From IMG/VR virus record IMGVR_UViG_3300023196_001512, positions 1 through 61,495 of that record: DNA of 61,495 nt; one strand, 5' to 3'. A program made the position numbers and the translations under genes. Source of the stretch: a virus (taxonomy: Duplodnaviria > Caudoviricetes). The notes under the pieces were generated by a model that did no database searches, was not told where the DNA came from, and worked only from the letters and a program-made list of their open reading frames with translations. Shown here in pieces: positions 9,055 through 51,170 of this stretch; positions within the stretch are counted from its first letter, which is position 1; every line of letters begins with the position of its first letter.

Positions 9055-9320
9055 AATTCCTCTACTATTCTTTGTACTTTATCAAGATGCTTCTTAACAG
9101 CTGCACATTTTTCATACTCTTCACGATCTTCATATAAATTTATTAGTGTCATTAGCCTAGCTAACTCACCAACAGCGTGATCATTTAAGTCATCTGCATA
9201 ATATTCCATGGTGTCTCTAGCTTCTGTTTGTTCTACTCCGTAGATGCGCTTAATCAATGCGCCAGCTAGTCTATCTACTAATTTGTCTAATTGTTTTTCA
9301 GTCATGTTTATATTATCCAT
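9051..9320 (-). CDS. Hypothetical protein with UVR-like C-terminal helix pair
   Basis: EEYEKCAAVK; overlapping operon arrangement. Confidence 0.65.
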   Translation of the reverse strand: MDNINMTEKQLDKLVDRLAGALIKRIYGVEQTEARDTMEYYADDLNDHAVGELARLMTLINLYEDREEYEKCAAVKKHLDKVQRIVEEL

Positions 9321-9774
9321 TAGTATTCGTATTAAGTTTGTATCTTCTTATAAGATCACTTGCTTGACCTACAAATATACAGTGATCAGCAGTAGTGTGA
9401 TCATACCTGAATATGCTAATCCATATTTGATCTTTACCCCACCAAAAGTAATATGTGTAGTCAAGATCGCCATGCTCACGGCCTGGTGTTTCTAAATATA
9501 CATTGTGTGATTCATTGCTAACTCTTCCGTAATGTACACCTAGTTTTAAATGTGTTAATAGCTGCGCTGCAAAACAGTCTACGCCGTTATGCGCTTGACC
9601 AACATTACTTGTAAATTCTGCTAATGCAACACCTAAAAAGTCAGGTGCACCATCGTAATGATGGTATATTTGGTGTGTGACTATCTGTCTACTGCAGTCG
9701 TCGTATAGTTTAAAGTCGCTGAATGATACGCCTGATTGACGCTCAGCAAATCGTATTAGTGCTCTAGTTGCCAT
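9313..9774 (-). CDS. Conserved phage hypothetical protein
   Basis: MATRA..IY.HYDG.P..LG pattern common in phage early proteins. Confidence 0.7.
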   Translation of the reverse strand: MATRALIRFAERQSGVSFSDFKLYDDCSRQIVTHQIYHHYDGAPDFLGVALAEFTSNVGQAHNGVDCFAAQLLTHLKLGVHYGRVSNESHNVYLETPGREHGDLDYTYYFWWGKDQIWISIFRYDHTTADHCIFVGQASDLIRRYKLNTNTNG

Positions 9775-10033
9775 TGTTTCTTATATAACTGTTATAATTG
9801 TCTTTAAATAATTCTCTCAAACCTCTGCCGCTACGACTGTGAAAGCCATAGCTATGAGTTGCTAAAGTTGGTATTGGTTTATCTGCTAACATAAATTCAA
9901 TAACTTGTTTAGCGTCGGTGCTACTTTGGTATAAGTATGCAACTTCTTCTGCTGCTGCAGCAAGAGCGCCTACATCATGCCTAGGCTCATGGCCAAGATC
10001 TTCTATGTATTTTTTTATCTCTTCTGGCTTCAT
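9764..10033 (-). CDS. Hypothetical protein
   Basis: ORF tiles within the minus-strand operon. Confidence 0.65.
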   Translation of the reverse strand: MKPEEIKKYIEDLGHEPRHDVGALAAAAEEVAYLYQSSTDAKQVIEFMLADKPIPTLATHSYGFHSRSGRGLRELFKDNYNSYIRNNGN

Positions 10034-10035
10034 AA

Positions 10036-10290
10036 TTAATCTAATAATACGTAATATGCATCAGTATTGTTCTTTCTGAACCAGTCAAGCCCTTTACGCA
10101 TATCTGTTAATACTTTTTTATTTTTAAGTAAACCCATTTCCATTAGGTTGCTAGCGCCTATTACAAAGTCGTACATGCTTAGCTCTTCAGCTGTAAGTTC
10201 ATAACTTTGCCCGCTAAATGGGTTTGTGACTGTGTCACCTTCATCATATTTTTGGCCGTCAAACCACTTTGGTAATTCTACTTTTGTCAT
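10036..10290 (-). CDS. Conserved phage hypothetical protein
   Basis: V.NPFSG...L, YD...G and C-terminal WF...N..AY.VLLD. Confidence 0.7.
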   Translation of the reverse strand: MTKVELPKWFDGQKYDEGDTVTNPFSGQSYELTAEELSMYDFVIGASNLMEMGLLKNKKVLTDMRKGLDWFRKNNTDAYYVLLD

Positions 10291-10300
10291 AATTTTAGTT

Positions 10301-10906
10301 TTAGTGAAATATTAATCCTACTTTATTTGTTTTGTTAAACCACTTTGTGGCCATTAAATCAATACTAGAAGCGTCAACATAGCCAGTAGATATAAGTTTA
10401 CTATGGCTATGAAAAATACGCGTGTGTCTATCTTTGGTTTCATCTATTAAATGTTTTTGTTTACCTGAGTCGCTGAATATAATATCGTAGTTGTCAGGTA
10501 GATTAGCATTTTTAAGCATTTCTACGCAGTTTGTGTAGCTGTAGAAGCGTACGTGCGGGTTGTGTATAGCAACGGCAAGCCATTTATCAAGATAAGCTTT
10601 TGAATAATAGTCGCCGCTGTCATGCACCCTTACATAATCAGGACGCTTTTTAGCTATTTCCTGATTCATCTTATTAACAAAGTCATCTGTTTTACTGAGT
10701 TGATAACGCTTTTCAAACGCTGGTTGAACGTTTGACCATATATACGCGCCTTTTTTGGCATAACAAAACTTCACGCACGCATCAGCGAACGGGCATGTCA
10801 ACTTACCCGATGCTGATTTGTACGCTGGAATACCAAAATTAAATACTCGTAACCCTAGCGACTTGCTAGTCTTTTTGAGTTTGCTGTTTTGAGTTAGCAA
10901 ATTCAT
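10301..10906 (-). CDS. GP88-like protein (Cys-cluster, radical-SAM-like)
   Basis: TCPFADACVKFCYA.KG, RVHDSGDYYS, FYSYT. Confidence 0.7.
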   Translation of the reverse strand: MNLLTQNSKLKKTSKSLGLRVFNFGIPAYKSASGKLTCPFADACVKFCYAKKGAYIWSNVQPAFEKRYQLSKTDDFVNKMNQEIAKKRPDYVRVHDSGDYYSKAYLDKWLAVAIHNPHVRFYSYTNCVEMLKNANLPDNYDIIFSDSGKQKHLIDETKDRHTRIFHSHSKLISTGYVDASSIDLMATKWFNKTNKVGLIFH

Positions 10907-11139
10907 TTCTCTTCTATTAAGAATTTTTCGCCGTACGACCAGTCGTAGCTAGACATGCTACCAAGAGATATACTTGTAAAATTTATGAGCTCTCTTGCTT
11001 GACCGATTGATAAGTGTGACCACAAATAATTTTCTCTCAATGCTATTTTAATGCCTTTGACCAGCGTAGGATATAATTCTTCTTGCTTGAGTAGCTCTTG
11101 CTTGATCTCTGGTTTTAGTTTGTCATATAATGTGCTCAT
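10903..11139 (-). CDS. Hypothetical protein
   Basis: ORF with ATGA overlap to next gene. Confidence 0.65.
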   Translation of the reverse strand: MSTLYDKLKPEIKQELLKQEELYPTLVKGIKIALRENYLWSHLSIGQARELINFTSISLGSMSSYDWSYGEKFLIEEK

Positions 11140-11140
11140 A

Positions 11141-11512
11141 TTAGTCTTGGTTTAATTGGTTATCATCTTCTTTAATCTCAGCAAACATATTTTCTACATT
11201 TTGCATGATGCTTCTAACTACTTCGTCAGTATTGTCAAAGCAAAAGCTTTCGCAAGTTACTCTGTTGTCGTAGTCAATACCGTAGTCGATACTATAGTTA
11301 TCAAGGTCATCAAAGTCAAAGCCTTCGATAGCTTCTTCAACTAAAAGTTGTAACTTGTCGTACTGTTGTGGTGTTAGTTTAGGTTTGCTTAGATCAGCGT
11401 GCTGCTTTTTATACTGCTCTAGTTGCTCGGTATATTTAGTGATGTCAACGTTGCTGTCAGCAATCATAGACTCTATAGTACCGATCTTTACTTGTAATTC
11501 TTCTTTTGTCAT
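11141..11512 (-). CDS. Acidic hypothetical protein with N-terminal coiled coil
   Basis: First gene downstream of the promoter motif at 11539-11569. Confidence 0.7.
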   Translation of the reverse strand: MTKEELQVKIGTIESMIADSNVDITKYTEQLEQYKKQHADLSKPKLTPQQYDKLQLLVEEAIEGFDFDDLDNYSIDYGIDYDNRVTCESFCFDNTDEVVRSIMQNVENMFAEIKEDDNQLNQD

Positions 11513-11538
11513 ATTGGTTTATTTAATTTGGTTTATAT

Positions 11539-11569
11539 TATTATCTATTGGTAATCGTTTTTAGTTTGT
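11539..11569 (-). promoter_or_regulatory. Early promoter-like motif copy 1 (ACAAA-N6-ACGA-N9-GATAATA)
   Basis: Plus strand reads tattatc-N9-tcgt-N6-tttgt, upstream of a minus-strand gene. Confidence 0.8.
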
Positions 11570-11674
11570 AAATAGCTTTATTAGTCCGGCTATAGTTATA
11601 TAGTATATAAAAGCTGTAAAAAGCAAACCTATCCAACCGGCTATAGCTATCAATATAAGTTTAAACCTGCTCAT
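11561..11674 (-). CDS. Small membrane peptide (37 aa)
   Basis: Hand translation MSRFKLILIAIAGWIGLLFTAFIYYITIAGLIKLFTN. Confidence 0.55.
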   Translation of the reverse strand: MSRFKLILIAIAGWIGLLFTAFIYYITIAGLIKLFTN

Positions 11675-11876
11675 TAAGCGTATTTATTTTATCAAAGTCT
11701 TCTTTTTCATAATAGTAAGCATACAACTGTGCTCTATAATCGTTCACTTTAGCTTGCCAGTAAGTAGCGTCGGTTACAAAACCATACTCTTTATAGTGGC
11801 CGGCTTGCTGTATAGCATGTGACAGTAGCTGCTTAAGTACTCTCTCGCTTTTGTATTGCACTTTTAATTTAGTCAT
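11661..11876 (-). CDS. Hypothetical protein
   Basis: ORF with ATGA overlap. Confidence 0.65.
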   Translation of the reverse strand: MTKLKVQYKSERVLKQLLSHAIQQAGHYKEYGFVTDATYWQAKVNDYRAQLYAYYYEKEDFDKINTLNEQV

Positions 11877-12373
11877 GATAAATTGTATCTGTGTCCGTTA
11901 ACTATTACTTGTACTTCATCGCCAAATGGTAATCTGTTACTTGACTTGTTGTTGTAATCTCTTACATACGCTTCACGTAAACATTTCATAACGTGGTCAC
12001 TCATTGTGTACGTAGTCTTTTGATAGTAGTTCTTGATAATAAACTTAGCTAAGTATATTAGACGCTCTTCCCAACTATCAATCATTATACGCTCTTTGCC
12101 TGTCATACCTGACTCATAAACTACTGGTTTAGTCTTGTTTATTTGATAAGAGCTTGCCAAGCCTTCGGTAACATTACGTACATAACCTGTAGTATACGTA
12201 GCAAAACGTAAAGGTTTAGGGTCTAGTGTTTGCCATACTTGGCTGATTGGTAATTCAAATACTTGCGTACCATTTTCATGTTGACGCTTTGTTGTAATAT
12301 CTTTGATACCTAGTATCTTGAAGATAGTCATTGCCTCGCGGGCAGATGTAATTTCTGTTGACATGTATTCCAT
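11873..12373 (-). CDS. Hypothetical protein
   Basis: 166-aa ORF in early operon. Confidence 0.7.
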   Translation of the reverse strand: MEYMSTEITSAREAMTIFKILGIKDITTKRQHENGTQVFELPISQVWQTLDPKPLRFATYTTGYVRNVTEGLASSYQINKTKPVVYESGMTGKERIMIDSWEERLIYLAKFIIKNYYQKTTYTMSDHVMKCLREAYVRDYNNKSSNRLPFGDEVQVIVNGHRYNLS

Positions 12374-12378
12374 ATTGT

Positions 12379-12591
12379 TTATAATTTAATTTGGTTTATA
12401 GTATGGTCAGAGTGTATCATCCACTCGCAGTCTTTCAGCCTGTGACCTTGATCGATTAGTAATTGTTCTACTTCTTCTGCTTGAGGTTCATCTTTATCTT
12501 TGAACAAATAGTTGTCGCCAACTTCTTGTAGATTGTATTGGTAAATTGCACCGTCGCCAAAGTCTAATACTGTAATGTATGTAAAATCCAT
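12379..12591 (-). CDS. Hypothetical protein
   Basis: First gene after promoter copy 2. Confidence 0.7.
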   Translation of the reverse strand: MDFTYITVLDFGDGAIYQYNLQEVGDNYLFKDKDEPQAEEVEQLLIDQGHRLKDCEWMIHSDHTINQIKL

Positions 12592-12608
12592 AGTTGTTTA
12601 TTTAATTA

Positions 12609-12639
12609 TATTATCTGTTAGTAATCGTTTTTAATTTGT
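12609..12639 (-). promoter_or_regulatory. Early promoter-like motif copy 2
   Basis: tattatc-N9-tcgt-N6-tttgt. Confidence 0.8.
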
Positions 12640-12706
12640 TATAGAAAACGAGGTGGGTGAAACTGGTTAATTTTTATATCACCTTTAGTCCAGACACACT
12701 CGTATA

Positions 12707-12922
12707 TTATCTAAGACACGTGCCGTAACCTTTACGACGACTAGCCTTAGCTACCGCAATTGAAACTGCTTGCGATACTATCTGTATTGTGTTACCTGTT
12801 TTGTGATTAGTGATTGGAGCTGACGCTACACGCTCAATACCACTACAAGATACACATGTTTTATACCCGTACTTTTGTCTTACTGGGTGAACGGGCTCAC
12901 CACACTTACAATAATTTGCCAT
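12707..12922 (-). CDS. C4 zinc-finger protein (DksA/TraR-finger-like)
   Basis: CKCGEPVHPVR......TCVSC. Confidence 0.65.
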   Translation of the reverse strand: MANYCKCGEPVHPVRQKYGYKTCVSCSGIERVASAPITNHKTGNTIQIVSQAVSIAVAKASRRKGYGTCLR

Positions 12923-12945
12923 AGTTAACAGTCTTTTGTCATATA

Positions 12946-12976
12946 TATTATCTGAAGGCAGTCGTATACAATTTGT
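12946..12976 (-). promoter_or_regulatory. Early promoter-like motif copy 3
   Basis: tattatc-N9-tcgt-N6-tttgt. Confidence 0.8.
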
Positions 12977-13002
12977 ATAGTTGTGCCGTGTATAGCAAGC
13001 GA

Positions 13003-13080
13003 CTAGTTGTAGATTTGCCGCTTGAGTGCTACAATAAAGTAATATATTATTAGGTATACAGTTAAGTCTACTGGTGTCAT
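13003..13080 (-). CDS. Micro-peptide, hydrophobic (25 aa)
   Basis: MTPVDLTVYLIIYYFIVALKRQIYN; ATGA overlap with upstream peptide gene. Confidence 0.5.
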   Translation of the reverse strand: MTPVDLTVYLIIYYFIVALKRQIYN

Positions 13081-13166
13081 TTTCTTTGATTTGTTTTAAT
13101 ATCTAAGTATACAAATGTTGAAGCGCATACTAATACAATGAGTGCTATCTTAACGTACTCTATCAT
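13077..13166 (-). CDS. Micro-peptide, hydrophobic (29 aa)
   Basis: MIEYVKIALIVLVCASTFVYLDIKTNQRK; ATGA overlaps at both ends. Confidence 0.55.
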   Translation of the reverse strand: MIEYVKIALIVLVCASTFVYLDIKTNQRK

Positions 13167-13273
13167 TTAAGTAGATTTATAAGTATTAGTGATACAATAC
13201 ACACAAAGCCACCTATCATGGCGATGTTCTCTACAACTTCAAAGAAGTTTGCTTTAGGTTTTCTTAGTTTCAT
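13163..13273 (-). CDS. Micro-peptide, hydrophobic (36 aa)
   Basis: MKLRKPKANFFEVVENIAMIGGFVCIVSLILINLLK; A-rich start context. Confidence 0.55.
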   Translation of the reverse strand: MKLRKPKANFFEVVENIAMIGGFVCIVSLILINLLK

Positions 13274-13284
13274 AATATTATTTT

Positions 13285-13479
13285 TTAGTGTAAGTTATCC
13301 CACACTAGTTCATGTATTAACTCGTAATCTTCATTGAGGTCATCGAGTTGTTCATCAGTCATTTCTTTACCATCATAGTCTGCACTGTCTATAAAGGCAT
13401 CGCAGTAATCTGGGTAGTCCCAGTGGTGAATACCATCTAGTACTACATTGGTAATTTTGGTGTATTCAAATTTAGTCAT
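13285..13479 (-). CDS. Conserved acidic phage hypothetical protein
   Basis: DYPDYCDAFIDSADYDG.EMTDEQLD.LN. Confidence 0.7.
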   Translation of the reverse strand: MTKFEYTKITNVVLDGIHHWDYPDYCDAFIDSADYDGKEMTDEQLDDLNEDYELIHELVWDNLH

Positions 13480-13481
13480 AG

Positions 13482-13715
13482 TTAATCTCCTTGTTCTACT
13501 AGTTTGTTAATGTAATCTTCGTTGTAGTGATTGTACTGTGGTGTGTTGTCGTTCCAGAACCTACATCTATCACTAGTTCTAACGAAATGTTTCTTTAGTT
13601 CTTTATGTATTAGTTCATAGTGAGTGCGACCACGTAAGTACACTTTGTTGTCATCACTCATATCGTGGTGATGGTCGTGGATTTGTATCTGTTCTGATAG
13701 TTCCTGTATAGTCAT
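13482..13715 (-). CDS. Hypothetical protein
   Basis: HD...DMSDD.KVY..G pattern; tiles in operon. Confidence 0.7.
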   Translation of the reverse strand: MTIQELSEQIQIHDHHHDMSDDNKVYLRGRTHYELIHKELKKHFVRTSDRCRFWNDNTPQYNHYNEDYINKLVEQGD

Positions 13716-13716
13716 A

Positions 13717-13848
13717 TTACTTATGCTTTTTAAATATTAGTGCTTTAATTTCTTCTCTTTCTTCGTAGCTACAAGTATCGTAGCCAAACTCGCCGTATAT
13801 TGTTTTAGCGTAATAGTCAGATAGTATGTTAAACTTTTGCTTAGTCAT
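13717..13848 (-). CDS. Small hypothetical protein (43 aa)
   Basis: Hand translation MTKQKFNILSDYYAKTIYGEFGYDTCS...; fills gap exactly. Confidence 0.65.
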   Translation of the reverse strand: MTKQKFNILSDYYAKTIYGEFGYDTCSYEEREEIKALIFKKHK

Positions 13849-13849
13849 A

Positions 13850-14101
13850 TTACTTAGTTTGTAAGCCACCGATGGCTTTGTTTAATGTAATTCTTGATTG
13901 CTTATCGGCGTTCCAGTTTAATTCACTTGCTGAGATGTAGCAATAGCCTTTGTAGTTGAATTGAGAAGATGTAGGTATTTCCTCGTAATTCTTAGGCAAC
14001 TGATGAAGTTGATGAGGTATGTATTTAGTATTGCCGAGTGTAATAATGTTTGTAGAAACATCGAGTTTTAATGTGTGCATGGTATATAATTTTATATTCA
14101 T
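13850..14101 (-). CDS. Hypothetical protein
   Basis: Follows promoter copy 4; true start probably the second Met (MHTLK). Confidence 0.6.
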   Translation of the reverse strand: MNIKLYTMHTLKLDVSTNIITLGNTKYIPHQLHQLPKNYEEIPTSSQFNYKGYCYISASELNWNADKQSRITLNKAIGGLQTK

Positions 14102-14104
14102 TTA

Positions 14105-14135
14105 TATTATCTGTAGGTAGTCGTTTTCAGTTTGT
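14105..14135 (-). promoter_or_regulatory. Early promoter-like motif copy 4
   Basis: tattatc-N9-tcgt-N6-tttgt. Confidence 0.8.
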
Positions 14136-14226
14136 AAAGAGGGTACTATCGTTTATCACTTAAAATATAGGTGTAGGGTATTGTACACTATCTCTCAATG
14201 AGTAATGAAATTACATTTACAAAAGT

Positions 14227-14272
14227 GTGACAGTAGGTAGTTAAACTAATAAGAGTAACTACCTTGTGTCAC
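14227..14272. repeat. Long imperfect inverted repeat GTGACA..AGGTAGTTA-N12-TAACTACCT..TGTCAC
   Basis: Read directly; intergenic. Confidence 0.65.
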
Positions 14273-14277
14273 TGTTT

Positions 14278-14517
14278 TTACTTAGTATCAGACAAGTGTC
14301 GAGCGAAGGCAGGCACCGCGTTACTATTAGTGTAGTTACCGTATTGTTGAAAACAAGGCATCGACTCGAAACGTTCTTGGTAGGTAGAATATACTTCATC
14401 GTGATTATAAGTATGAGTTTCACCTTTTTTGTTAGTGAAGGTGATTATAGTATTTTCACCGATTAGACTTTTTCTGATAACAAATCTTTTTGTAGTAATA
14501 GTGTTTAAATTTGACAT
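14278..14517 (-). CDS. Early hypothetical protein, paralog A
   Basis: 31/37 identical residues to 14662-14895 over the TTKRF...VYS core. Confidence 0.8.
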   Translation of the reverse strand: MSNLNTITTKRFVIRKSLIGENTIITFTNKKGETHTYNHDEVYSTYQERFESMPCFQQYGNYTNSNAVPAFARHLSDTK

Positions 14518-14559
14518 AGTAATTTAATTTTAGTAGTTAATTATTTTTAGTTACAGTTA

Positions 14560-14589
14560 TATTATCTGAATATGTCGTAATAAGTTTGT
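14560..14589 (-). promoter_or_regulatory. Early promoter-like motif copy 5
   Basis: tattatc-N8-tcgt-N6-tttgt. Confidence 0.8.
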
Positions 14590-14609
14590 GCGGTGAGTTG
14601 AAGCAAAAA

Positions 14610-14645
14610 TGCTATACAAGTGCTATACACCGCCCTTGCGGGCGG
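14610..14645 (-). other. GC hairpin CCGCCC-GCAA-GGGCGG followed by two TGTATAGCA direct repeats
   Basis: Stem 14630-14645; repeats 14610-14618 and 14621-14629. Confidence 0.65.
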
Positions 14646-14661
14646 CGATATTAAGCAGAGA

Positions 14662-14895
14662 CTATTTAGTCTCCACTTGGTGTTCTCTTGCCCATGTTGG
14701 TAAGTTGTTACTGTTAGTATAGTTACCATACTTGTGCCAGCAGTCCATGTTACTTAGTTTTTCTTGATTCGCAGAGTACACAGCATCATGGTCATACGTA
14801 TACGTTTCATCTTTCTTGTTAGTGAAAGTGATGATTGTGTTGTTACCAATTAGTGACTTTCTCATTACGAATCTTTTTGTTGTTAGTGTTGACAT
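14662..14895 (-). CDS. Early hypothetical protein, paralog B
   Basis: Paralog of 14278-14517. Confidence 0.8.
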   Translation of the reverse strand: MSTLTTKRFVMRKSLIGNNTIITFTNKKDETYTYDHDAVYSANQEKLSNMDCWHKYGNYTNSNNLPTWAREHQVETK

Positions 14896-14932
14896 AATAT
14901 TTAATTTAAAGTTTATAATTTATTTACAGTAT

Positions 14933-14962
14933 TATTATCGATTAAAGTCGTATTAAGTTTGT
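14933..14962 (-). promoter_or_regulatory. Early promoter-like motif copy 6
   Basis: tattatc-N8-tcgt-N6-tttgt. Confidence 0.8.
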
Positions 14963-14974
14963 GAGCGTGGCGGT

Positions 14975-15003
14975 TGCTATACATAAAGGCGCCCTGGCGG
15001 GCG
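14975..15003 (-). other. GC hairpin CGCCC-GCCA-GGGCG followed by TGTATAGCA
   Basis: Stem 14990-15003; motif 14975-14983. Confidence 0.6.
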
Positions 15004-15032
15004 GCCATTACCTAAAACTTCTATCGTAACTG

Positions 15033-15062
15033 TATTATCAAAACTAGTCGTAGTAAGGTTGT
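15033..15062 (-). promoter_or_regulatory. Early promoter-like motif copy 7
   Basis: tattatc-N8-tcgt-N6-gttgt (one mismatch). Confidence 0.7.
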
Positions 15063-16271: not shown

Positions 16272-17840
16272 ATGGAGTACAATCTACCAAGCGAGATTGT
16301 CAAAGAATTAAACTTTGGCGATAACGCAAAATCAAGAATAACTGCCGGTGTAGACAAGCTTGCCAAAGCTGTCAAGTCTACATTAGGCGCCTCTGGCAAA
16401 TGTGTCATATATGAAGACGCTAGAGGCAACCCGGTCATAACAAAAGATGGTGTAACCGTTGCGGAAAGCGTAGTCTTATTTGACCCGGTTGAAAACATGG
16501 GTGCTACTTTAATCAAAGAAGCAGCCAGAAATACAGTTCGCGAAGCCGGTGATGGCACTACTACAGCGACTGTTCTAGCAGAAGCACTACTAAAAACAGT
16601 AAATTTAGATGAATACAGCGATTGTCAGCTAAGAGAAATCAAAGATGGCATAGCAAGTGGCTTGAAAAAGGTTAACGACTACTTAAATAGCGTTAAAATT
16701 GACGTTACTGACGATAAGTTAGAGCAAGTAGCTACTATTTCATGCAATAATGACGCTGTTTTAGGTAAAATCATTGCAGAAGCGTATAAAAGCGTAGGAA
16801 AAGACGGTGTAGTACTGATGGAGACGTCAGAAACTGAAGAAACCTACGTAGAAGTAGTAGATGGCGTGCAGTTTGACTCACCTTTAACATCTCCTCACTT
16901 CACTACTAACGCAGAAAAGCAAAAAGCAGAGCTAGATACGCCGTTAATATTAATATGCATGTCTGAAATACCTAACGTACGAAAAATACAAGGCATATTA
17001 GAACATGTTATTAAGCAAAACAGATCTTTACTTATAGTAGCACCAGTGTCACAGCAAGTAAAGTCGGCACTTTTAATGAACAAGGTAAAAGGTAACATTA
17101 AAGTTAACATTATCGACTTACCTGGCTTTGGTCCTACTAAAAAAGACTCATGTGAAGACTTAGCAGCTTTAACAGGCGCTACGGTCATAAATGAAGAGTT
17201 AGGAGATGATTTAGACGGTATAAGCTTAGATATACTAGGAGAAGCTGAATATGCTTCTACAGACAGTAGTAACACAGTAATAACAACATTAGAAGAAGTA
17301 GACGTTGAAGATAGGATTGATCAAGTCGCAAAACTCATTGCAGACGAAAAAAGTGGTTTCCTTAAAAAGAAGCTGGAAGAAAGACTGTCTATGTTATCGG
17401 GTTCAGTTGGTATCATCAAAGTGGGCGCTGACTCTAAAGTCGAGCTCAAGGAAAAGAAGGATAGGGTTGAAGACGCGATATACGCAACTAAAGCAGCGTT
17501 GAAAGAAGGTATAGTACCAGGAGGTGGCGTAGCACTCTTTAACGCTTCCAAAAAAATCGAACCCACTAACGTGGGCGAAGAGATACTTCTAACATCAATA
17601 TTAGCGCCTATAGCGACTATATTAGATAATGCTGGTATATCAACTAGCATTAACCTACCAGAAGAAGAAGGTAAAGGTATTAACGTAGTTAACGGTGAGC
17701 ATGTAGATATGGTAGAAGAAGGTATCATTGATCCTGTACTAGTTACTAAGACAGCTCTTAAAAACGCTGTATCTGTTGTAACTACTATTATATCCGCTGA
17801 CTGTGTAATTTCAAACATACGAGTAAATGAAGGCAGTTAA
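16272..17840 (+). CDS. groEL: Phage chaperonin GroEL
   Basis: AVKSTLG, ITKDGVTVA, AGDGTTTATVLA, EGIVPGGG, GIIDP; no GGM tail. Confidence 0.96.
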   Translation: MEYNLPSEIVKELNFGDNAKSRITAGVDKLAKAVKSTLGASGKCVIYEDARGNPVITKDGVTVAESVVLFDPVENMGATLIKEAARNTVREAGDGTTTATVLAEALLKTVNLDEYSDCQLREIKDGIASGLKKVNDYLNSVKIDVTDDKLEQVATISCNNDAVLGKIIAEAYKSVGKDGVVLMETSETEETYVEVVDGVQFDSPLTSPHFTTNAEKQKAELDTPLILICMSEIPNVRKIQGILEHVIKQNRSLLIVAPVSQQVKSALLMNKVKGNIKVNIIDLPGFGPTKKDSCEDLAALTGATVINEELGDDLDGISLDILGEAEYASTDSSNTVITTLEEVDVEDRIDQVAKLIADEKSGFLKKKLEERLSMLSGSVGIIKVGADSKVELKEKKDRVEDAIYATKAALKEGIVPGGGVALFNASKKIEPTNVGEEILLTSILAPIATILDNAGISTSINLPEEEGKGINVVNGEHVDMVEEGIIDPVLVTKTALKNAVSVVTTIISADCVISNIRVNEGS

Positions 17841-20871: not shown

Positions 20872-21067
20872 TATAGGTAAAGACTATAAGAACGAAGCTA
20901 TGCACTATGCTGTTGGACAAGAAGTTTACGGTGGTCATACTATTTGTGATATTATAGAAGAAGAAGATAAATTCTCTGTATATATTAGAAAAAACAAAGA
21001 CGTATTACCTTGGAAAGACTTTAATAAGAATATGGCTGTTTCAGTTGAATACAACTTAGAGTATTAG
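20846..21067 (+). CDS. Conserved hypothetical protein
   Basis: IRKISIG.DYK.AMHY.VGQ; tiles in operon. Confidence 0.7.
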   Translation: MAKLIRKISIGKDYKNEAMHYAVGQEVYGGHTICDIIEEEDKFSVYIRKNKDVLPWKDFNKNMAVSVEYNLEY

Positions 21068-21648
21068 TGAAAGCTACGCATAGTTTTGTAATTGAGCCTT
21101 TAGGTAATAGATACAACAACGTAAAAAAAGTTGGCGATTCAGATTTAATATTAAATTCTGAAATATTTAACCATGAGTTTGTCAATAGACAAGCCGTGGT
21201 TAAAGCTACGCCTACAGCTTTTGATACAAATATAAGAGTTGGTGATACCGTCATTGTACATCATAACGTCTTTAGAAGATGGCATGATACGTATGGTAAT
21301 GAAAAAAACAGTAAAGCTTTTTTTGATGAAGACACTTATATAGTTAGTCAAGATCAAATATTTCTTTATAAGTCAAAAGACAAGTGGAAAGCTTGTAGTG
21401 GCTATTGTTTTGTTCAACCTATAAAGCAAAGAAATAATCTTGCTGAAGAACTCGAAGAGCAGTGCGTAGGTATTGTCAAGTATACTGACGGTGTAAATAA
21501 TATTGGCGAGCTAGTTGGCTTTACACCTTTTTCAACGTACGAGTTTATAATAGATAATACTAAGCTATACCGCGTTTTAAATAAATTTATTACAATTAAA
21601 TATGAGTATCAAGGAGACGAAGAAGCGTATAATCCTAGCTGGGCGTAA
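21067..21648 (+). CDS. GroES-like protein, probably two tandem GroES-fold domains
   Basis: FVIEP..AVVKATP..IRVGDTVIVH then CFVQP..GIVKY..IGELVGF..YEFIID..LYRV; GTG start. Confidence 0.6.
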   Translation: MKATHSFVIEPLGNRYNNVKKVGDSDLILNSEIFNHEFVNRQAVVKATPTAFDTNIRVGDTVIVHHNVFRRWHDTYGNEKNSKAFFDEDTYIVSQDQIFLYKSKDKWKACSGYCFVQPIKQRNNLAEELEEQCVGIVKYTDGVNNIGELVGFTPFSTYEFIIDNTKLYRVLNKFITIKYEYQGDEEAYNPSWA

Positions 21649-43655: not shown

Positions 43656-46600
43656 ATGAATAATCTACAAAAACTATATCAAACTATATTTGATGCTGGC
43701 TTGATCAATAATTCTTTTGAGGATTTTAGCCAAGGCATGCTTGGTGAAGATTATCAAAAAAAAGTATTTGATGCTATTACTGACAAAGGCTTATTTAGTC
43801 AAGATTTTAATACTTTTAAGTCTGGTTATTCTCCTAAAAAAGTAAAAATTTTTGGTAAAGAAAAAGATCAAGATGATTTAAGCTTCTTTGAAAGCTTAGC
43901 TGTGTCTATGAAAAACAAATTTCCAGAGATTTCAAAAACATTAGACTGGTACAGCGCTTACACTGTTGATGTTGGTGTGGATCTTGCTGACGCTGTTTTT
44001 GGAGATGCTTTTAGTACTACACCTAAAGATGTTGTTGATAAAGAGTTTGGAGGAGACTTTAAGTCTGCTATAGATAAGTCGTCTGATAAAGATGCTAGCA
44101 CAAAAAATGTATATTTCATAGATCCTTTAACTAAAAATAAAATTGTTTTTGATAAAAAGGCTTTTGAATCAAAGGGACATTATGCTGAAGAAAACGAAAG
44201 ATGGTATGAGCTTGCTAGGCTAGCTGAAAAGTCTGATGATATAGAAAGCGGCTTTATAGATTCTGATGCTAACGCTATAAAAGCAGATATGGCAATGCCT
44301 GTTATAAAAAGAGCTCTTGAAACCGAAAAAGAAATACAAGAGTTTACTAGCAGAGATACTACAGGTTTTACAGACGCGATGAAGAAAGGGAAAACCAAAG
44401 ATGCTTCTTTGTACGCTATAGACTTTGCTGGTCAAATGTTAAAATCTATTGTATTGGCTAAACTTACTAGAGGAGCGTCTCTATATGCTGAGGCCGTTTC
44501 TAGCACTTACCAGGGCTTTAACTTAGAGAAAGCTAACGCTTTGTATGGAGGAAGAGACGAAGAGTCTGTTAGAAAGCTTATGGCAAACGGCGAAAGTGAA
44601 GTTTTAATTCCAACTGCAGCGGCGGGGTTTGTCGCAGCTTTAGATAAATTAGGCTTAGATGGCCTGTCAGGCAAGTACTTTAAAAATATATTAGCACATA
44701 GAAAAGCTTTAACGCTACTTGTAGGATCTGGTACTGAAGGTGCTACTGAATATACTCAAGGTTTATTAGAAAGATTTAATAATAATCTAGGTGCTCAAAT
44801 GAGTGTAAAAGAAGCCGCAGAAGATGTAGCTGAATACGCTGGATCAGACGAGGCTTTAGATCAGTTTTTTGCAGGTTTGATTGGTGGTGGCATGATTCAA
44901 GGTGGTGGTATGACATACAACGCTGCGTTTAGAAGAGATGAAGCCTCTATAGATTTTATTGATAAAAAAATAAACAACATTAACAAACTTCAAGAAGAAG
45001 CTTATAAATTACAAGATCCTGAAGTAATTAAAGCTAACAAAGCTAAAGTAGATCAAGAGTTTAAAGAACTAAAGCTTTATCTAAAAAGAAACAAAGACGC
45101 CTCTGAGTTTTTAACTGATAAAGGAAAAAAAGAAATAATAGATTTAGCTAATTCAAGAGAGTCTGTACAGAAGAAAATAAAAGAATTAAACAACCTTAAA
45201 AAGAAGGGCGCTATAACAAAAGAAGCAGCTGAAGTTAGATTAAACCAATACCAGTCGCAGTTAAAAGAAATAAATAGTAAAACAACAGAGATAAGAAATG
45301 AAGCGGTTAAGTCAAAACTTCAAGCAGACTTAAAAACTTCTGGTTTTGCTGTAGAGAATATTGACGAGCTAAATCAAGTAGTAGTAAAAGACGGTAAAGA
45401 ATTATTCGAGAAAGTTGACGAGTGGTATAAAAGACATGGCTTAGAAAATCCTTATACTCAGAGTGAGTTTGAAGGCCAAGGCGGTGGTGACGCTTTGATA
45501 TTAGGTAACAATATATTTATAAACGAAAAAAATGCTGTTAAAAATTCAGCATTTGGCGTTGGTACTCACGAGTTTTTGCACGCTGTAATTAAGTCTGTTA
45601 TTAGAAAAAAAGACGGTAGTGGTGAGCTTTCTGACAAAGGCGTAGCTTTAGTTAAAGACTTTTTAAATACATTGAGTAGAAGCGATAGAGTTGAAGTTGA
45701 AAAACGAATGAGAGATGAATACGAAGAAGGTCTTTCAGAAGAACAAAACTTTAGAATATACGGCGAAGAAGCTTTAACTTATTATGTTCAATTAAAGAAA
45801 GAAAAAAGATTAACTAAATCTGCTGCTCAAAGAGGCATGATGTGGCTTAAAAATTCTTTTAGCAAAGAAACGCCTTACAAAAACTTAGATATAACTGATG
45901 GTAAAAGTTTTCAAAACTTTCTTGACATTTTTGTTTCAGATGCAGATCAAGGTCAGTTTAGATCTGAGTTTGTTGCTTTAGCTAAACAAGGAGCTGAAGA
46001 AACTGTAGTTGAAACAAAAGCCGCAGCTAGTAAAACTACTCGTAGAGCTAAAAGAAGTCGTACGGTAGCAGAAAAACAGATAACCGAAAAAGCTAAAACT
46101 GCTCAGAGCAAGATAGATGAAATTGGTAAAAAAGCTAGTAACAAAGCTGAATACGATGCTGGTGTAAATGTTGAGGCTTATACTTATTTAACTGAAGGTG
46201 GAGGATTATCTGCTATGATAAAAGCTAAACTCTTAAAATATGACATAAGCGTTTCTGGTAAAGACGCTAATGTTTATGGGCAGCCATTAGAGCTTTTTAT
46301 TGAAGATGTTAAAGGAAGAGTAATACCAGCTATATTAGGATTTAATCCTGAAAAAGAAACTACTAGTGAAGGTAAGTTTGGGCTTTCTGGTTGGGTAAAC
46401 TTTAATTTAAATAAAAGAGTTTTAGATAGCATAGGAGACTCTAAAAAAACTGTTGTAGGTGTTTCTTTAAACAAAAAGGTTGGAGACTCAGACATGGAAG
46501 TTGGAGACTTTTTATATGTTGAAGGCGACAAACGTATAGAAAGCTTTGAAGAGCAAAACTTAAGCGTATATAGTGAGACGCAACAAGAAAACGTAGAGAT

Positions 46601-49600
46601 CACTGCAGAGCAAGAAGCTTTACAATCAAAGTATCGTCATAAATTAAAAAATCAAGACGGATCTAAGCTTATTGGCGTTAGTCAAGTTGAAAACATTAGA
46701 GAAGGCTTAAGAAAAATATTTAGAACACTACAAACTGAAATAAGCGCTAGTGAATTTTTATTGAACTTTGAAAACACGGTAAAAAAGACCATGAAGAATA
46801 TTGTTCAAGGTGCTATTGGAACAAAAGAAACATATAGAAAATTCTTAATTAATAATATTGAAACTATAGTAGAATATAGTTCACTACAAGATTTAGTCGC
46901 GTTAGAGCGTTTAGTAGGTAAAGGCAAAACTAAAGGCGGTAGAAAAATATTTACCGTACCTGTTAAAAGACTTACAAAAAAAGAAGATATACAAAAAGCT
47001 ATTGATCAAGGTAAATTACCGCCTGATGCTATTAACAAAAGCGAAGAAGGTGTATTTTTATCTGAGAAAAGAGTACCTACTCAAGAAGAATTAGAAGCAT
47101 ATTTTCTTGGTAAAAATATGATGGAGGTTTTAGGTTATGAAGTTGGTTCTTCTACGCTAGGAACTAGAAAAGACGGATTATCACGTATGGTTACTACATC
47201 TCTTGCACAAGATGCTACTATGGAAACTATACAAGAACCTGATATACTAGAAGAGGCTTCAGTATTTACTGAAGGTTTATCAGCAGAAATACAAGTAGGA
47301 CAACTTGCTGGTAAAATAAATAAATCTCCTTTTTTGAAGTTTACAAGAAGTGCATTTGAAACTTTAGACAGCTCTAAACACGAAGACTACAAGTCAGCGT
47401 ATAAGGGTTTTGAAAACGGTAAATTTTTACTTGCTAAGCCTAAAGGTATAGATCAAGAAGCTTACGACTATGCTTATCTTGATTTTGTTAGAAGTAGATC
47501 AGATGTATACAAAGTTACTAAGTTAAAAGAGTTAAGAAACAAATTATATGGTAAAAACGCTGATTACTCTAGAGCTAAATACGATGAAAAACTTTCTCTT
47601 AGAATAGAGCGTATCGCTAGAGACAATATAAACAAAGTTGCAAAGGGTATACCTTTTGTAGATGTAGTATTAGCTGATTCTGCTAACTCTAATTTACCAG
47701 ACATACTTTTAATGTTCGACGGTAAAGATTTATTAGCTATAGAGGTAAAGGCTGATTCTGCTAGAACTTCTTCTATTACTGCGTATTTTACTCTTAAACT
47801 AGAAGGCATTTTAGGTCTTTCTGCACAAGTACAGCAACCTGAGTTATTGAGCGATATATACAAAGAAAAAGCAGTTCCTGTTCTTAAAAAAATGAAAAAA
47901 AGACTTAAGGATAGATTTGGTATTGACTTTGACGGATCTACAACAGAGCTTACTCCACAGCAGTACTATTACTTACAAGGAAAGTTTGTAAATGGCAAAA
48001 AAATTAAAGGCTTAAGCAATCTAATGGTAGAGCTTAACGCTGCCACTAAAACTTCTGTTGATAGCTCTTGGGCTTCTTTTGGGTATTTAAACAAAAGTAT
48101 TCCTTCGCAATATATTAACCTAGGCCTTGCTGGATTATTTCACTTTGGAAAAGAGTCAAATGATATAATGAATTTAGGTACTAAATCATTCGATGGAGTT
48201 CAAATACCTTTAAGCTTTAGAATATCAAGACATAGATTAGCAAACGGTAATTTTGGAATAAGAATTAGAGTTGACGCGCAGCTATCGTCGCAAGCTTTTG
48301 CTGAATCTAAAAATCATGGTAAAAGTAATATCAATGTGATGTTAGAAGCTGGTGGTAGACAGTTCTTCAAAAATAAAGACGGTGTTAAAAGACTTGAAGT
48401 AAGGGGTAAAAGATCAAAATCTGAGTCTATTAATAAAGCTTCAGAGCTTGCTAGACTCACCAACAAAAGCACGCCATCAAGAGGTATGAGTATTTTTGAT
48501 TTCGATGAAACAGTTGGTGTTAGTGAAAATGTAGTCATAGCTAATAAAGATGGTGTTGTAAAAGAAGTATCTTCAGATCAATGGCCTCACGTTGGTGAGC
48601 AATTAAAAGCTGAAGGTTGGACGTTTGATTTTAGTGATTTTAATAAAGTTACTAAAGGTAAGCCAGGCCCTCTCATGCAAAAGTTAAAAAATCAAATATC
48701 TAAATACGGAAACAAAAACGTATTTATATTGACCGCAAGAGCTCCTCAAAGTCAAAAAGCAATATTTGAGTGGTTAAAATCTCAAGGAATTATTTTGCCA
48801 TACGAAAACATAACTGGGCTAGGTAATAGCGCTGGTAATGCTAAAGCTCAGTGGATATTAGATAAGTATGCAGAAGGGTATAATGATATTTATTTTGTAG
48901 ATGATGCTATGCCTAACGTTGATGCAGTTCAGCATGTGTTTGACCAGCTAGACATTAAAGGTAAGTCTGTGCAAGCTAAAATTAAGTTTAGCAGAACTAA
49001 AAAACAAAACTTTGACAGTATACTTAAGCGTACTGTAGGAATTGATCAAGATATAGATCCTGCTAGAGCTAAAATAATAGGCGCTAAAAAGGGTAGTAAA
49101 GAATTTTTTATTGCACCAGGCGCTGATGACTTCCAAGGCTTGATGATGAGGTTAGCTGGTAAAGGCAAGCAAGGAGAGTCTGACATGAAGTTTTTCAAGC
49201 AAGTTTTCTTTGATCCATTTAATAGAGCGTATAGAAAATTAAATTCTATACAGTATAACATGATGGAAGGTTATAATAAAGTAAGAAAAGAGCATAAAGA
49301 TGTTATTAAAATACTTAAGAAAAAGTTTGACAGTGAATTTACTAATGAAGACGCTATAAGAATATACCTGTGGGATTTACAGGATATAGAAGTTCCAGGT
49401 TTAACAACTAAAGAGCAAAAAGCTATAGCTGCTAAAGTTGCTGAAAACGCTGACATGGTTAATTTTGCTTTAGATATAAGAAAAACTTTACAACTTTCTG
49501 GAGAATATGTAGCTCCAAAAGAAACCTGGAGTGTTGGTAGTATAAAAGGCGACATGTACGAAGCTTTAAACTCTGTGCATAGAAATAAAGCTTTGCAAGA

Positions 49601-51170
49601 GTGGCAAGAAAACATTGATGAGTTATTAGATAATCCTGAAATGTTAGCTAAGCTTGAAGCTTCTATGGGGAAAAGTTATGTTGAGGCCTTGAAAGACATG
49701 TTATATCGTATGCGTACTGGTAAGAATAGACCTACTGGTCCAAACGCTATGACTAACAAAGCTATGAACTGGCTACAAGGCGCTGTTGGTGCCATCATGT
49801 TCTTTAATAGTAGATCTGCTGTTCTTCAGACAATATCTACTATAAACTTTATAAATCACACAGACAATAATATATTTGCTTTTGCTAAGGCTATAGCTAA
49901 CGTAAGTCAGTTTGCTGAAGATTTTAAAATGTTGTTTAACTCGCCACAGTTGAAAGTTAGAAGATCTGGTTTACAACAAGATATACAAACGGCTGATTTA
50001 GCTGATAGCTTGAGTCGTGGTGGTGGTGCTAGCGGAGCACTAGCGTATCTACTTAAAATAGGATTTTTACCAACTCAAATAGCAGATAGCTTTGCTATTG
50101 CTTTTGGTGGTGCTGCTTTTTACAGAAACAGAGTGAACTCTTTAATGAAGCAAGGCATGACTCAAGAACAAGCGGAGAGCCAAGCAATGATAGACTTTCA
50201 AGATATTACAGAAGAGTCTCAACAGTCAAGTAGACCTGATCGTATATCACAGCAACAAGCTGCTCCTGTTGGTAGGTTATTATTAGCTTTTCAAAACACT
50301 CCGCTACAGTATAATAGAATAATTAAAAAAGCAATTACTGATATAGCAAACAAAAGAGGTGACATAAAAACTCACATATCAAGAATAGCTTACTACGGCG
50401 CAATACAAAGTCTTATATTCTACACTCTTCAACAAGCGTTGTTTGCAGAAGACGATCCAGAAGAAGAGCAAATACCAAGTAGCGTTAAAAAACAATATAA
50501 AAAAGGAATTAAAGACGGAACCATAAACAGATTTGAATATCCTAGCGTAAAATTTTACTATGCAGATACTAAAGCTAAGCAAAAGCAAGAGAGTTTAGTA
50601 AACAGTATGGCTGATGGTTGGCTAAGAGGTTCTGGCGTGAAAGGTGCTATAGTTTCTACATTTAAAAACGTAGTTAGAAGCTTTATGAAAGAAAGCGAAA
50701 AAGGATATAAAGCAGACTACTTTAATACGTTTATAGAAGTATTAAATGTGTCACCACAAATCGGTAGTAAAGCTAGAAAAATAAAAAGAGCTAGTGATAC
50801 GTATAAGTACAATAAAGATGTAATGTCTGAAATAGGCGCTTTTGATATTGATAATCCAGTATATCCTATGGCTTTTTCTTTAATAGAAGGTGTTACTAAC
50901 GCTCCAACACACAGGATATACACTAAGCTTGATAACTTAAAAGAAGCTTTTAATGAAGACAATACTGCAATGCAAAGAACATTTGTATCGTTGGGTTGGA
51001 ATCAATGGCAATTAGGCATTGATACATACAAAGATGTCAGAGAAGCTAAAGAAAAAATAAAAGAAAGAGAAAAAGCTAAAAAGAAGCAATGCCGTCAAAT
51101 TTTAAAGAACGGTAAAAGATGTAGCATAAGAACAGCTAGCAAAAGTCAGCTGTGCTATCATCACGATTAA
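43656..51170 (+). CDS. Giant multidomain (polyvalent) protein, probably virion-packaged and ejected
   Basis: HEFLH..EE zincin; sigma-like segment; PD...IEVK nuclease; DFDET/LTAR/FVDD HAD; C-terminal C-x9-C-x10-C-x2-H finger. Confidence 0.8.
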   Translation: MNNLQKLYQTIFDAGLINNSFEDFSQGMLGEDYQKKVFDAITDKGLFSQDFNTFKSGYSPKKVKIFGKEKDQDDLSFFESLAVSMKNKFPEISKTLDWYSAYTVDVGVDLADAVFGDAFSTTPKDVVDKEFGGDFKSAIDKSSDKDASTKNVYFIDPLTKNKIVFDKKAFESKGHYAEENERWYELARLAEKSDDIESGFIDSDANAIKADMAMPVIKRALETEKEIQEFTSRDTTGFTDAMKKGKTKDASLYAIDFAGQMLKSIVLAKLTRGASLYAEAVSSTYQGFNLEKANALYGGRDEESVRKLMANGESEVLIPTAAAGFVAALDKLGLDGLSGKYFKNILAHRKALTLLVGSGTEGATEYTQGLLERFNNNLGAQMSVKEAAEDVAEYAGSDEALDQFFAGLIGGGMIQGGGMTYNAAFRRDEASIDFIDKKINNINKLQEEAYKLQDPEVIKANKAKVDQEFKELKLYLKRNKDASEFLTDKGKKEIIDLANSRESVQKKIKELNNLKKKGAITKEAAEVRLNQYQSQLKEINSKTTEIRNEAVKSKLQADLKTSGFAVENIDELNQVVVKDGKELFEKVDEWYKRHGLENPYTQSEFEGQGGGDALILGNNIFINEKNAVKNSAFGVGTHEFLHAVIKSVIRKKDGSGELSDKGVALVKDFLNTLSRSDRVEVEKRMRDEYEEGLSEEQNFRIYGEEALTYYVQLKKEKRLTKSAAQRGMMWLKNSFSKETPYKNLDITDGKSFQNFLDIFVSDADQGQFRSEFVALAKQGAEETVVETKAAASKTTRRAKRSRTVAEKQITEKAKTAQSKIDEIGKKASNKAEYDAGVNVEAYTYLTEGGGLSAMIKAKLLKYDISVSGKDANVYGQPLELFIEDVKGRVIPAILGFNPEKETTSEGKFGLSGWVNFNLNKRVLDSIGDSKKTVVGVSLNKKVGDSDMEVGDFLYVEGDKRIESFEEQNLSVYSETQQENVEITAEQEALQSKYRHKLKNQDGSKLIGVSQVENIREGLRKIFRTLQTEISASEFLLNFENTVKKTMKNIVQGAIGTKETYRKFLINNIETIVEYSSLQDLVALERLVGKGKTKGGRKIFTVPVKRLTKKEDIQKAIDQGKLPPDAINKSEEGVFLSEKRVPTQEELEAYFLGKNMMEVLGYEVGSSTLGTRKDGLSRMVTTSLAQDATMETIQEPDILEEASVFTEGLSAEIQVGQLAGKINKSPFLKFTRSAFETLDSSKHEDYKSAYKGFENGKFLLAKPKGIDQEAYDYAYLDFVRSRSDVYKVTKLKELRNKLYGKNADYSRAKYDEKLSLRIERIARDNINKVAKGIPFVDVVLADSANSNLPDILLMFDGKDLLAIEVKADSARTSSITAYFTLKLEGILGLSAQVQQPELLSDIYKEKAVPVLKKMKKRLKDRFGIDFDGSTTELTPQQYYYLQGKFVNGKKIKGLSNLMVELNAATKTSVDSSWASFGYLNKSIPSQYINLGLAGLFHFGKESNDIMNLGTKSFDGVQIPLSFRISRHRLANGNFGIRIRVDAQLSSQAFAESKNHGKSNINVMLEAGGRQFFKNKDGVKRLEVRGKRSKSESINKASELARLTNKSTPSRGMSIFDFDETVGVSENVVIANKDGVVKEVSSDQWPHVGEQLKAEGWTFDFSDFNKVTKGKPGPLMQKLKNQISKYGNKNVFILTARAPQSQKAIFEWLKSQGIILPYENITGLGNSAGNAKAQWILDKYAEGYNDIYFVDDAMPNVDAVQHVFDQLDIKGKSVQAKIKFSRTKKQNFDSILKRTVGIDQDIDPARAKIIGAKKGSKEFFIAPGADDFQGLMMRLAGKGKQGESDMKFFKQVFFDPFNRAYRKLNSIQYNMMEGYNKVRKEHKDVIKILKKKFDSEFTNEDAIRIYLWDLQDIEVPGLTTKEQKAIAAKVAENADMVNFALDIRKTLQLSGEYVAPKETWSVGSIKGDMYEALNSVHRNKALQEWQENIDELLDNPEMLAKLEASMGKSYVEALKDMLYRMRTGKNRPTGPNAMTNKAMNWLQGAVGAIMFFNSRSAVLQTISTINFINHTDNNIFAFAKAIANVSQFAEDFKMLFNSPQLKVRRSGLQQDIQTADLADSLSRGGGASGALAYLLKIGFLPTQIADSFAIAFGGAAFYRNRVNSLMKQGMTQEQAESQAMIDFQDITEESQQSSRPDRISQQQAAPVGRLLLAFQNTPLQYNRIIKKAITDIANKRGDIKTHISRIAYYGAIQSLIFYTLQQALFAEDDPEEEQIPSSVKKQYKKGIKDGTINRFEYPSVKFYYADTKAKQKQESLVNSMADGWLRGSGVKGAIVSTFKNVVRSFMKESEKGYKADYFNTFIEVLNVSPQIGSKARKIKRASDTYKYNKDVMSEIGAFDIDNPVYPMAFSLIEGVTNAPTHRIYTKLDNLKEAFNEDNTAMQRTFVSLGWNQWQLGIDTYKDVREAKEKIKEREKAKKKQCRQILKNGKRCSIRTASKSQLCYHHD

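Follow-up and report, generated by a model that had tools for sequence, protein, structure and literature searches.

A predicted sigma-2-like domain in a giant structural-block protein of an uncultured phage

The sigma-like segment of P0001

The DNA analyzed here is the IMG/VR virus record IMGVR_UViG_3300023196_001512, a linear record of 61,495 bp that was taken over its whole length (the window; CheckV completeness 98%). Its structural block holds two giant open reading frames (ORFs), of 2391 aa and of 2504 aa, the latter called P0001 below (Table 1). Inside P0001 lies a segment predicted to adopt the fold of domain 2 of the sigma-70 family (the sigma-2-like domain), followed by an acidic linker and a further conserved domain. 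A preliminary description of this DNA had singled out the range 46050-47336, which corresponds to aa 799-1227 of P0001, as sigma factor-like on account of three peptides. All three are present there: FIEDVKGRVIPAILGFNPEK (aa 881-900, nt 46296-46355), GLSGWVNFNLNKRVLDSI (aa 909-926, nt 46380-46433) and VSLNKKVGDSDMEVGDFL (aa 936-953, nt 46461-46514). The first two (46296-46433) fall in the sigma-2-like domain, and the third, described as part of a sigma 'finger', falls in the acidic linker.

Table 1. Positions of the features discussed in the text (nucleotides of the window).
Feature	Position	Strand	Basis or remark
Giant ORF P0001	43656..51170	+	2504 aa; downstream of terminase, portal and structural genes, same strand
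Zincin-like metallopeptidase motif, HEFLH aa 638-642 and Glu705	45567..45770	+	motif level, no profile match
Sigma-2-like domain, aa 820-932 (~sigma regions 1.2-2.4)	46113..46451	+	predicted fold and profile-profile alignment
Acidic, predicted-disordered linker, aa 933-986	46452..46613	+	pLDDT <50, D/E content
Conserved alpha/beta domain without recognised fold, aa 987-1235	46614..47360	+	after linker in 24/24 aligned homologues
HAD-phosphatase-like domain, aa ~1609-1790 (DFDET 1615-1619; DD 1749-1750)	48480..49025	+	motif
Strongly conserved C-terminal module, aa ~1800-2450	49053..51005	+	dozens of invariant polar residues
Cys/His-rich tail, aa 2477-2504	51084..51167	+	sub-threshold Pfam DUF5763, E 0.21
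Free-standing canonical sigma-70-family gene, 248 aa	7008..7754	-	Pfam Sigma70_r2 E 5e-6, r4 E 1.2e-7; TIGR02937 E 7.7e-19
Early-type region with 7 exact motifs and one variant	9311..15062	-	each site upstream of a small minus-strand ORF
Exact motif copies	9311-9341, 11539-11569, 12609-12639, 12946-12976, 14105-14135, 14560-14589, 14933-14962	-	pattern count
One-mismatch motif variant (ACAAC...)	15033-15062	-	one copy
Giant ORF, 2391 aa	32464..39639	+	PHROG 'virion structural protein' E 8e-121; crAss muzzle C-terminal domain E 3e-6
GroEL-like chaperonin	16272..17840	+	PHROG E 1e-129
GroES-like chaperonin	21067..21648	+	PHROG E 1e-15
ORF, 608 aa	53979..55805	+	ends with type IX secretion C-terminal sorting domain (Pfam E 1.6e-7; TIGR04183 E 9e-10)

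AlphaFold2, run with 24 sequences, gave a model of aa 820-1240 (predicted local distance difference test, pLDDT, 71.9; predicted template modelling score, pTM, 0.61). Residues ~820-932 were predicted to form a sigma domain 2-like fold, mostly at pLDDT 75-86. When the helical first 113 residues of the model were compared with 48,161 PDB representatives, ranks 1-22 were all taken by sigma factors or sigma-containing complexes (in the complexes the sigma chain is presumably the match), with the first unrelated entry at rank 23. A second ranking had sigma entries at positions 1-35, followed by a step down to unrelated folds. The matches include SigK, SigW, SigC, sigma-E region 2, SigI6, BldN, CnrH, AlgU, pro-sigma-K, sigma-28, sigma-32, sigma-B, RpoS and SigR, as well as PDB 7d7d, a T4 late-transcription complex. 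The sigma-2 fold that the preliminary description led us to look for was found in the predicted structure, with sigma-2 domains ahead of every other fold. Foldseek returned nothing at E<=0.001, and several sigma chains stood among its weak rows; features of the segment in the ESM Atlas reached a best score of 0.79, with unrelated families only. For a prediction, the sigma-2-like fold is well supported. As in domain 2 of the sigma-70 family (extracytoplasmic function, ECF, and group 3: SigK, SigW, sigma-E, sigma-S), the predicted helices run over ~85-90 residues, at a root-mean-square deviation of ~3 Å, and the motifs follow in the same order: an acidic helix, an F-x-P/g loop, an aromatic W/Y helix and a basic end, and then an acidic linker.

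The sequence comparison used a profile of the segment family (n = 21) and 30 sigma ORFs, of ECF and RpoD types, from three Bacteroidota metagenome-assembled genomes (MAGs). Aligned with hhalign, the two gave P 2.5e-4 and a score of 29.7 over 82 columns (probability 43%), in a register that places FIEDV on DLvQE, F-NPE on F..g and LFGWI on f.tWL. The reversed-template control scored 11.3. In a clean shuffle of the match columns, 0 of 250 permutations reached the real score of 28.1 (mean 9.9, sd 1.9, max 20.1); in a cruder shuffle, which also moved gap-rich columns, 4 of 200 were at or above it. The same sigma targets gave P 1e-8 to 1e-10 against a free-standing sigma factor of this phage (see below). 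The predicted fold and the profile-profile alignment thus bear out the likeness to sigma70 regions 2.2-2.4 that had been claimed for this segment, in the register proposed, and remote homology to sigma is likely, rather than convergence. Unlike sigma-70 factors, the segment is internal (aa 820-932 of 2504), stays below curated family thresholds, has no detectable sigma-4 and is followed by a 250-aa domain.

Of 7,997 candidates scored in a search with aa 780-1240, 73 had E<=0.001. These proteins are 1406-3661 aa long and all of metagenomic origin, and the sigma-like segment was recovered in 61-63 of them by local rounds of hidden Markov model (HMM) searching. The consensus of its core is F(N/K/D)P(E/D)...(GKFGLSG or NDSLFG)(W/Y)(I/V)N.Q(I/L).N(K/R).G(D/N)V. 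Distant members of the family read ...F(N/K)PE..NDSLFGWINSQIANKAGNVYN... and are closer still to sigma in look. A profile search of 1,835,955,588 proteins gave 272 clusters at E<=0.001, in which nearly all full-length members have 2000-3600 aa; the members of the family come from uncultured marine phages only. The P0001 relatives taken from IMG/VR comprise 80 loci. The segment was detected in 40 of 83 loci at E<1e-3, and in 27-31 by a stricter rule.

The linker (model residues 114-167) contains 26% D/E and is net negative in 23 of 24 homologues. A likeness of this part to the region 3.2 finger, also put forward in the preliminary description, could not be established, as aa 933-986 are predicted to be disordered and no alignment to sigma region 3.2 had statistical support; the resemblance of the linker to a sigma finger or an ECF linker is one of character only. 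The domain that follows is predicted confidently (pLDDT 82). Its best Foldseek rows were PrsA foldases at E 0.035 or weaker (template modelling score ~0.17), and BFVD gave one family member only. No sigma-3 or sigma-4 was detected after the linker, with no sigma row in two fold searches and hhalign P >=0.09 against sigma; a sigma-4 may still have escaped the fold-search lists.

Other parts of P0001 were recognised mainly from motifs. P0001 has no family at the Pfam curated cut-off, no PHROG at E<=0.01 and no phmmer match among PDB sequences at E<=1, and blastn and tblastn of its gene, of the sigma-like segment and of the C-terminal half found no match in 50,697 phage records. The residues H638, E639, H642 and E705 of the zincin-type motif are found unchanged in 90% or more of the 41 homologues aligned. 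The DFDET/DD pattern, which we take to be of HAD type, lies in a region with conserved columns D1615, D1617, T1619, K1737, D1749 and D1750 and a sub-threshold match to Pfam DUF2608 (E 1.9e-4). For the C-terminal module, no match was found in Pfam, PHROGs, the PDB (E<=1) or the same phage records (tblastn); these ~650 aa probably act as an enzyme or as a packaging anchor, of no recognised kind. In the tail, C2479, C2489, C2500 and H2503 are kept in at least 90% of homologues. Relatives of P0001 are encoded by 564 of 600 pattern-matching IMG/VR stretches among the matches listed, many of them matching the C-terminal half only, and the N-terminal halves vary. Some homologues bear Zeta-toxin/AAA kinase domains, and PF19067 is precomputed on three.

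P0001 is a multi-domain protein of the 'polyvalent' type, combining a sigma-2-like fold with HExxH+E and HAD-type motifs, several unrelated domains in one chain. Polyvalent proteins have been described from phages and conjugative elements, with themes that include zincin processing and 'jump-start transcription' in the available text (Iyer et al., 2017, PMC5512222), where HExxH with a downstream Glu is also the pattern given for their metallopeptidases. P0001 resembles the proteins presented there in its size, its unrelated modules, its zincin-type HExxH and its place among virion genes; unlike them, it matches none of the Pfam LPD-type families named in that text. The main text of PMC5512222 does not use the word 'sigma', and a comparative paper on jumbo phages (PMC7824862), in its available text, mentions free sigma factors only. 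In the accessible texts of the literature searched, supplementary domain lists aside, no virion or polyvalent protein with a sigma-like domain came up.

The gene of P0001 sits in the structural block, after the 2391-aa protein of crAss-muzzle type, and Flavobacterium phage elemoF has a positional counterpart that bears the annotation 'structural protein'. Going by gene order and architecture, P0001 is probably packaged and ejected with the DNA. Unrelated giant genes occupy the same position in relatives (MW202828.1, 741-12320, 3859 aa; NC_055853.1, 48718-59802, ~3694 aa), so that across the group this slot holds a giant protein of cargo type that changes fast. The 3859-aa giant of MW202828.1 has no similarity to P0001 and no sigma-like segment.

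The free sigma factor and the promoter-like motif

A canonical, free-standing sigma-70-family gene lies on the minus strand of the window and had been missed in the preliminary description; it is recognised by Pfam r2 and r4 and by TIGR02937 (Table 1). The motif ACAAA-N6-ACGA-N8/9-GATAATA, described earlier as an early promoter, is real, with 7 exact copies against 0.00 expected. All 8 motif sites, including the variant with one mismatch, share the strand of the free sigma gene and precede it, in a region where no promoter of another type is evident. ACAAAC stands 17-18 bp upstream of GATAAT, which is one base off TATAAT, the -10 consensus of RpoD-type sigma factors. GATAAT is thus a near-canonical -10 hexamer, and ACAAA a -35-like block. 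In some copies the middle block is AATACGACT, which resembles the beginning of the T7 promoter, probably by coincidence. Host-type promoters of Bacteroidetes have the consensus TTTG-N17-23-TAnnTTTG; they are not enriched in the window (7 against 4.1 expected, with 17 of 100 shuffles giving at least 7), and the early region has none on its minus strand. The promoters recognisable upstream of the free sigma gene are all of non-host type, which raises the question of what makes the first sigma.

Relatives of the free sigma are very abundant in marine metagenomes: 8,000 of 8,000 scored candidates had E<=1e-5, the best 120 being 70-100% identical. They appear binned in MAGs of many unrelated phyla, which suggests that these occurrences are mis-binned phage contigs. 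Of the stretch 9000-15100 of the window, four RNA runs contain 5-7% of the sequence words, as contigs, which bears on neither expression nor habitat.

We compared the presence of the segment, the free sigma and the motif among relatives of the phage. Whole genomes were translated in six frames and searched with the segment profile (positive controls, 4 of 4 found); for the relatives, the motif count is that of the shorter pattern ACGA-N8/9-GATAATA. The window (G000, 7 exact copies of the full motif) and three relatives that are at least 98% complete, G006, G007 and G008 (7, 2 and 10 motif copies), have both the segment and the free sigma. Five relatives that are 100% complete, G009-G013, give no segment match at E<=1 (0 of 5 in six frames); all five encode the free sigma, with two copies in G009, and four of them carry the motif in 2-9 copies (0, 2, 9, 7 and 6 in G009 to G013). 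Most motif copies of G010-G013 precede the sigma gene and are on the same strand as it. Neither segment nor free sigma is found in phage elemoF, nor in MW202828.1 (portal 56% identical), where the giant ORF was searched for the segment and the motif count is 0. Two segment-positive genomes, G004 (76% complete) and G005 (86%), have neither sigma nor motif, which says little as they are incomplete.

Of the 9 sigma-bearing genomes examined, 8 thus carry the motif, among them 4 of the 5 without the segment: it tracks the free sigma and not the sigma-like module. Since segment-free relatives keep both free sigma and motif, this promoter class does not need the sigma-like domain, which is probably not the factor that reads these promoters. 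An extended motif of ~31 bp, ACAAAyT-N4-ACGA-N8/9-GATAATA(TA), occurs also in G006, G008 and G010-G013, where the sigma proteins are ~50-75% identical. The two sigma copies of G009 (2276-3025 and 65785-66534) lie near both genome ends, possibly in a terminal repeat.

Possible roles of the sigma-like module

Most likely, the segment derives from sigma-2 (regions 1.2-2.4) and forms a module of a polyvalent, probably virion-delivered protein. Of its possible roles we favour docking on host RNA polymerase for capture or competition, which is possible rather than probable. The module would consist of three parts, the sigma-2-like domain, the acidic linker and the post-linker domain, placed downstream of the zincin-type HExxH motif. 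P0001 would travel into the cell with the phage DNA, and the sigma-2-like domain, in the manner of sigma-2 domains, would bind the clamp helices of beta-prime in the host core RNA polymerase. It may thereby compete with host sigma-A and capture or block the polymerase as soon as infection begins, and the ACAAA..ACGA..GATAAT promoters would be read by the RpoD-like free sigma of the phage. That the upstream HExxH domain releases the segment is conjecture. A predicted complex of the sigma-2-like domain with a 190-aa clamp-helix fragment of beta-prime from a Flavobacteriaceae MAG scored 0.01 against a mark of 0.32; with the fold of the partner uncertain, this speaks neither for nor against docking.

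Several points weigh against this reading. The fold of aa 820-932 is a prediction made from 24 sequences, and packaging, ejection, polymerase binding and the competitive role are all steps that we infer from sequence. A blocker of the clamp helices would compete with the phage's own sigma too, and about half of the relatives lack the module (it is detected in 40 of 83 loci at E<1e-3), which is therefore dispensable for the shared life cycle. Pfam, PHROGs and NCBIfam give no sigma match for P0001 or the segment, which is below the curated Sigma70_r2 and TIGR02937 cut-offs; only 1 of 21 segment family members touches Sigma70_r2, at E 0.069. PDB profile searches with the segment list no sigma at E<=10, and with the sigma family of the phage itself hhalign aligns the segment at a probability of 0.3%. 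Moreover, 272 matches in 1.84 billion proteins are too few for true sigma factors, which were therefore not reached. The best rows of the PDB profile search were an RPA32 winged helix (E 0.005), which falls in the post-linker domain, and, for the segment-family profile, designed repeat proteins. As ordinary searches give no link to sigma, the segment appears very divergent.

One alternative, which we consider doubtful, is that a sigma-2-derived fold has been exapted to a task without RNA polymerase, for example binding single-stranded or melted DNA as it enters, or packaging or scaffolding in the particle. A family so small and closed, with nearly all of its full-length members of similar giant size, would suit such a role, as would the constant coupling of the segment to the post-linker domain and the loose conservation of the residues that we take to be the beta-prime contacts of sigma (Q/E of region 2.2). 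Yet the best-conserved stretch, F-NPE...LFGWINSQI.NKAGNV, is the exact equivalent of regions 2.2-2.4, and the acidic linker after the domain mirrors the layout of sigma and ECF factors.

The preliminary description proposed that the phage injects its own sigma for the early promoters. Its supports in part stand, as the segment is predicted to be sigma-2-like, the promoter motif is real and no RNA polymerase was found among the 49 ORFs scanned; against it, a free sigma is present, no sigma-4 was found and segment-free relatives keep the motif. In a modified form, the delivered module would act with host core polymerase as a starter that opens the GATAAT promoters, including those of the free sigma, which would then take over the same promoters. 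We regard this as improbable. It would account for the promoters upstream of the free sigma, where 8 of 8 motif sites and no other evident type stand on its strand and host-type promoters are neither enriched in the window nor present on the minus strand of the early region. Factors with sigma-2 only exist (T4 gp55), and 7d7d is among the fold matches. 'Jump-start transcription' is, in addition, a published theme for polyvalent proteins (PMC5512222, available text). On the other side, all five complete relatives without a detectable segment retain the free sigma and four of them the motif, no sigma-4 was found to match the -35-like block of the promoters, and the module is unrelated in sequence to region 2 of the free sigma, although both would read the same -10 element. 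If true, such a starter would be a third answer to time-zero transcription, beside host-type early promoters and virion RNA polymerases, and would prime a positive-feedback loop then sustained by the free sigma, with the acidic linker finger-like.

That the segment has no sigma homology at all, being a generic helical bundle drawn sigma-like by AlphaFold2 with a coincidence of short motifs, fits the lack of Foldseek matches at E<=0.001, the negative HMM-to-sequence searches and the empty ESM Atlas result, but has only a slim chance in view of the sigma entries at ranks 1-22 and 1-35 before the step to unrelated folds, and of independent profile-profile support with motifs in register that 0 of 250 shuffles reach.

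Phages without host-type early promoters are known to bring their own polymerase, as in N4, crAss-like phages and phiKZ; giant virion RNA polymerases are N4 vRNAP (N4-like) and gp66 of phi14:2 (crAss-like). In the window, scans of 49 ORFs against Pfam and PHROGs, and of 8 of these against NCBIfam as well, found no RNA polymerase, in agreement with the preliminary description. Two candidates were rejected. P0001 itself has a sole D.D.D string, DQDID at 1797, which is not a conserved column, and no polymerase family match. The 2391-aa neighbour has DTDGD, the metal-binding signature of two-barrel RNA polymerases, at aa 695, which reads DNDGA in the one relative that covers the site (L004, 71% identical there) and is thus not a conserved catalytic motif. 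Like the N4 and crAss-like virion polymerases, P0001 is a giant of the structural block in a podovirus-type genome, beside a neighbour with a crAss muzzle domain, and would serve transcription at time zero; unlike them, its module would recruit the host polymerase and not replace it.

A phage-encoded free sigma with matching non-host promoters is an ordinary strategy according to the available text of PMC8948821. The window has such a gene together with non-host promoters to match. Other phage-encoded free sigma factors are those of the phiEco32 gp36 and phage 7-11 type and T4 gp55. Whereas those factors are small and made after infection, the P0001 segment sits in a giant of the structural block. 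If our preferred reading of a docking module holds, a sigma-derived domain in a delivered giant would be a cheaper route than a whole polymerase, as the phage would bring no more than the grip on the host enzyme. As an inhibitor or decoy, too, it would be a novel means of taking hold of RNA polymerase on entry, and the module would add a transcription function to the repertoire of polyvalent proteins.

Genome surroundings and likely host

The left arm of the genome, on the minus strand, encodes ribonucleotide reductase, thymidylate synthase, a primase-helicase, an exonuclease, Erf, the sigma factor and many small ORFs, and the right arm, on the plus strand, GroEL/GroES, terminase, portal and structural proteins. 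With the portals of podoviruses of Flavobacterium (Elemovirus), Cellulophaga, Maribacter and Tenacibaculum, that of this phage shares 27-56% identity. The type IX sorting domain at the end of the 608-aa product (Table 1) is unusual for a phage and hints at a Bacteroidota host. From portal kinship and sorting domain together, a host of Flavobacteriia type is likely, as judged on sequence. Chaperonin genes of the GroEL/GroES type occur also in phage elemoF.

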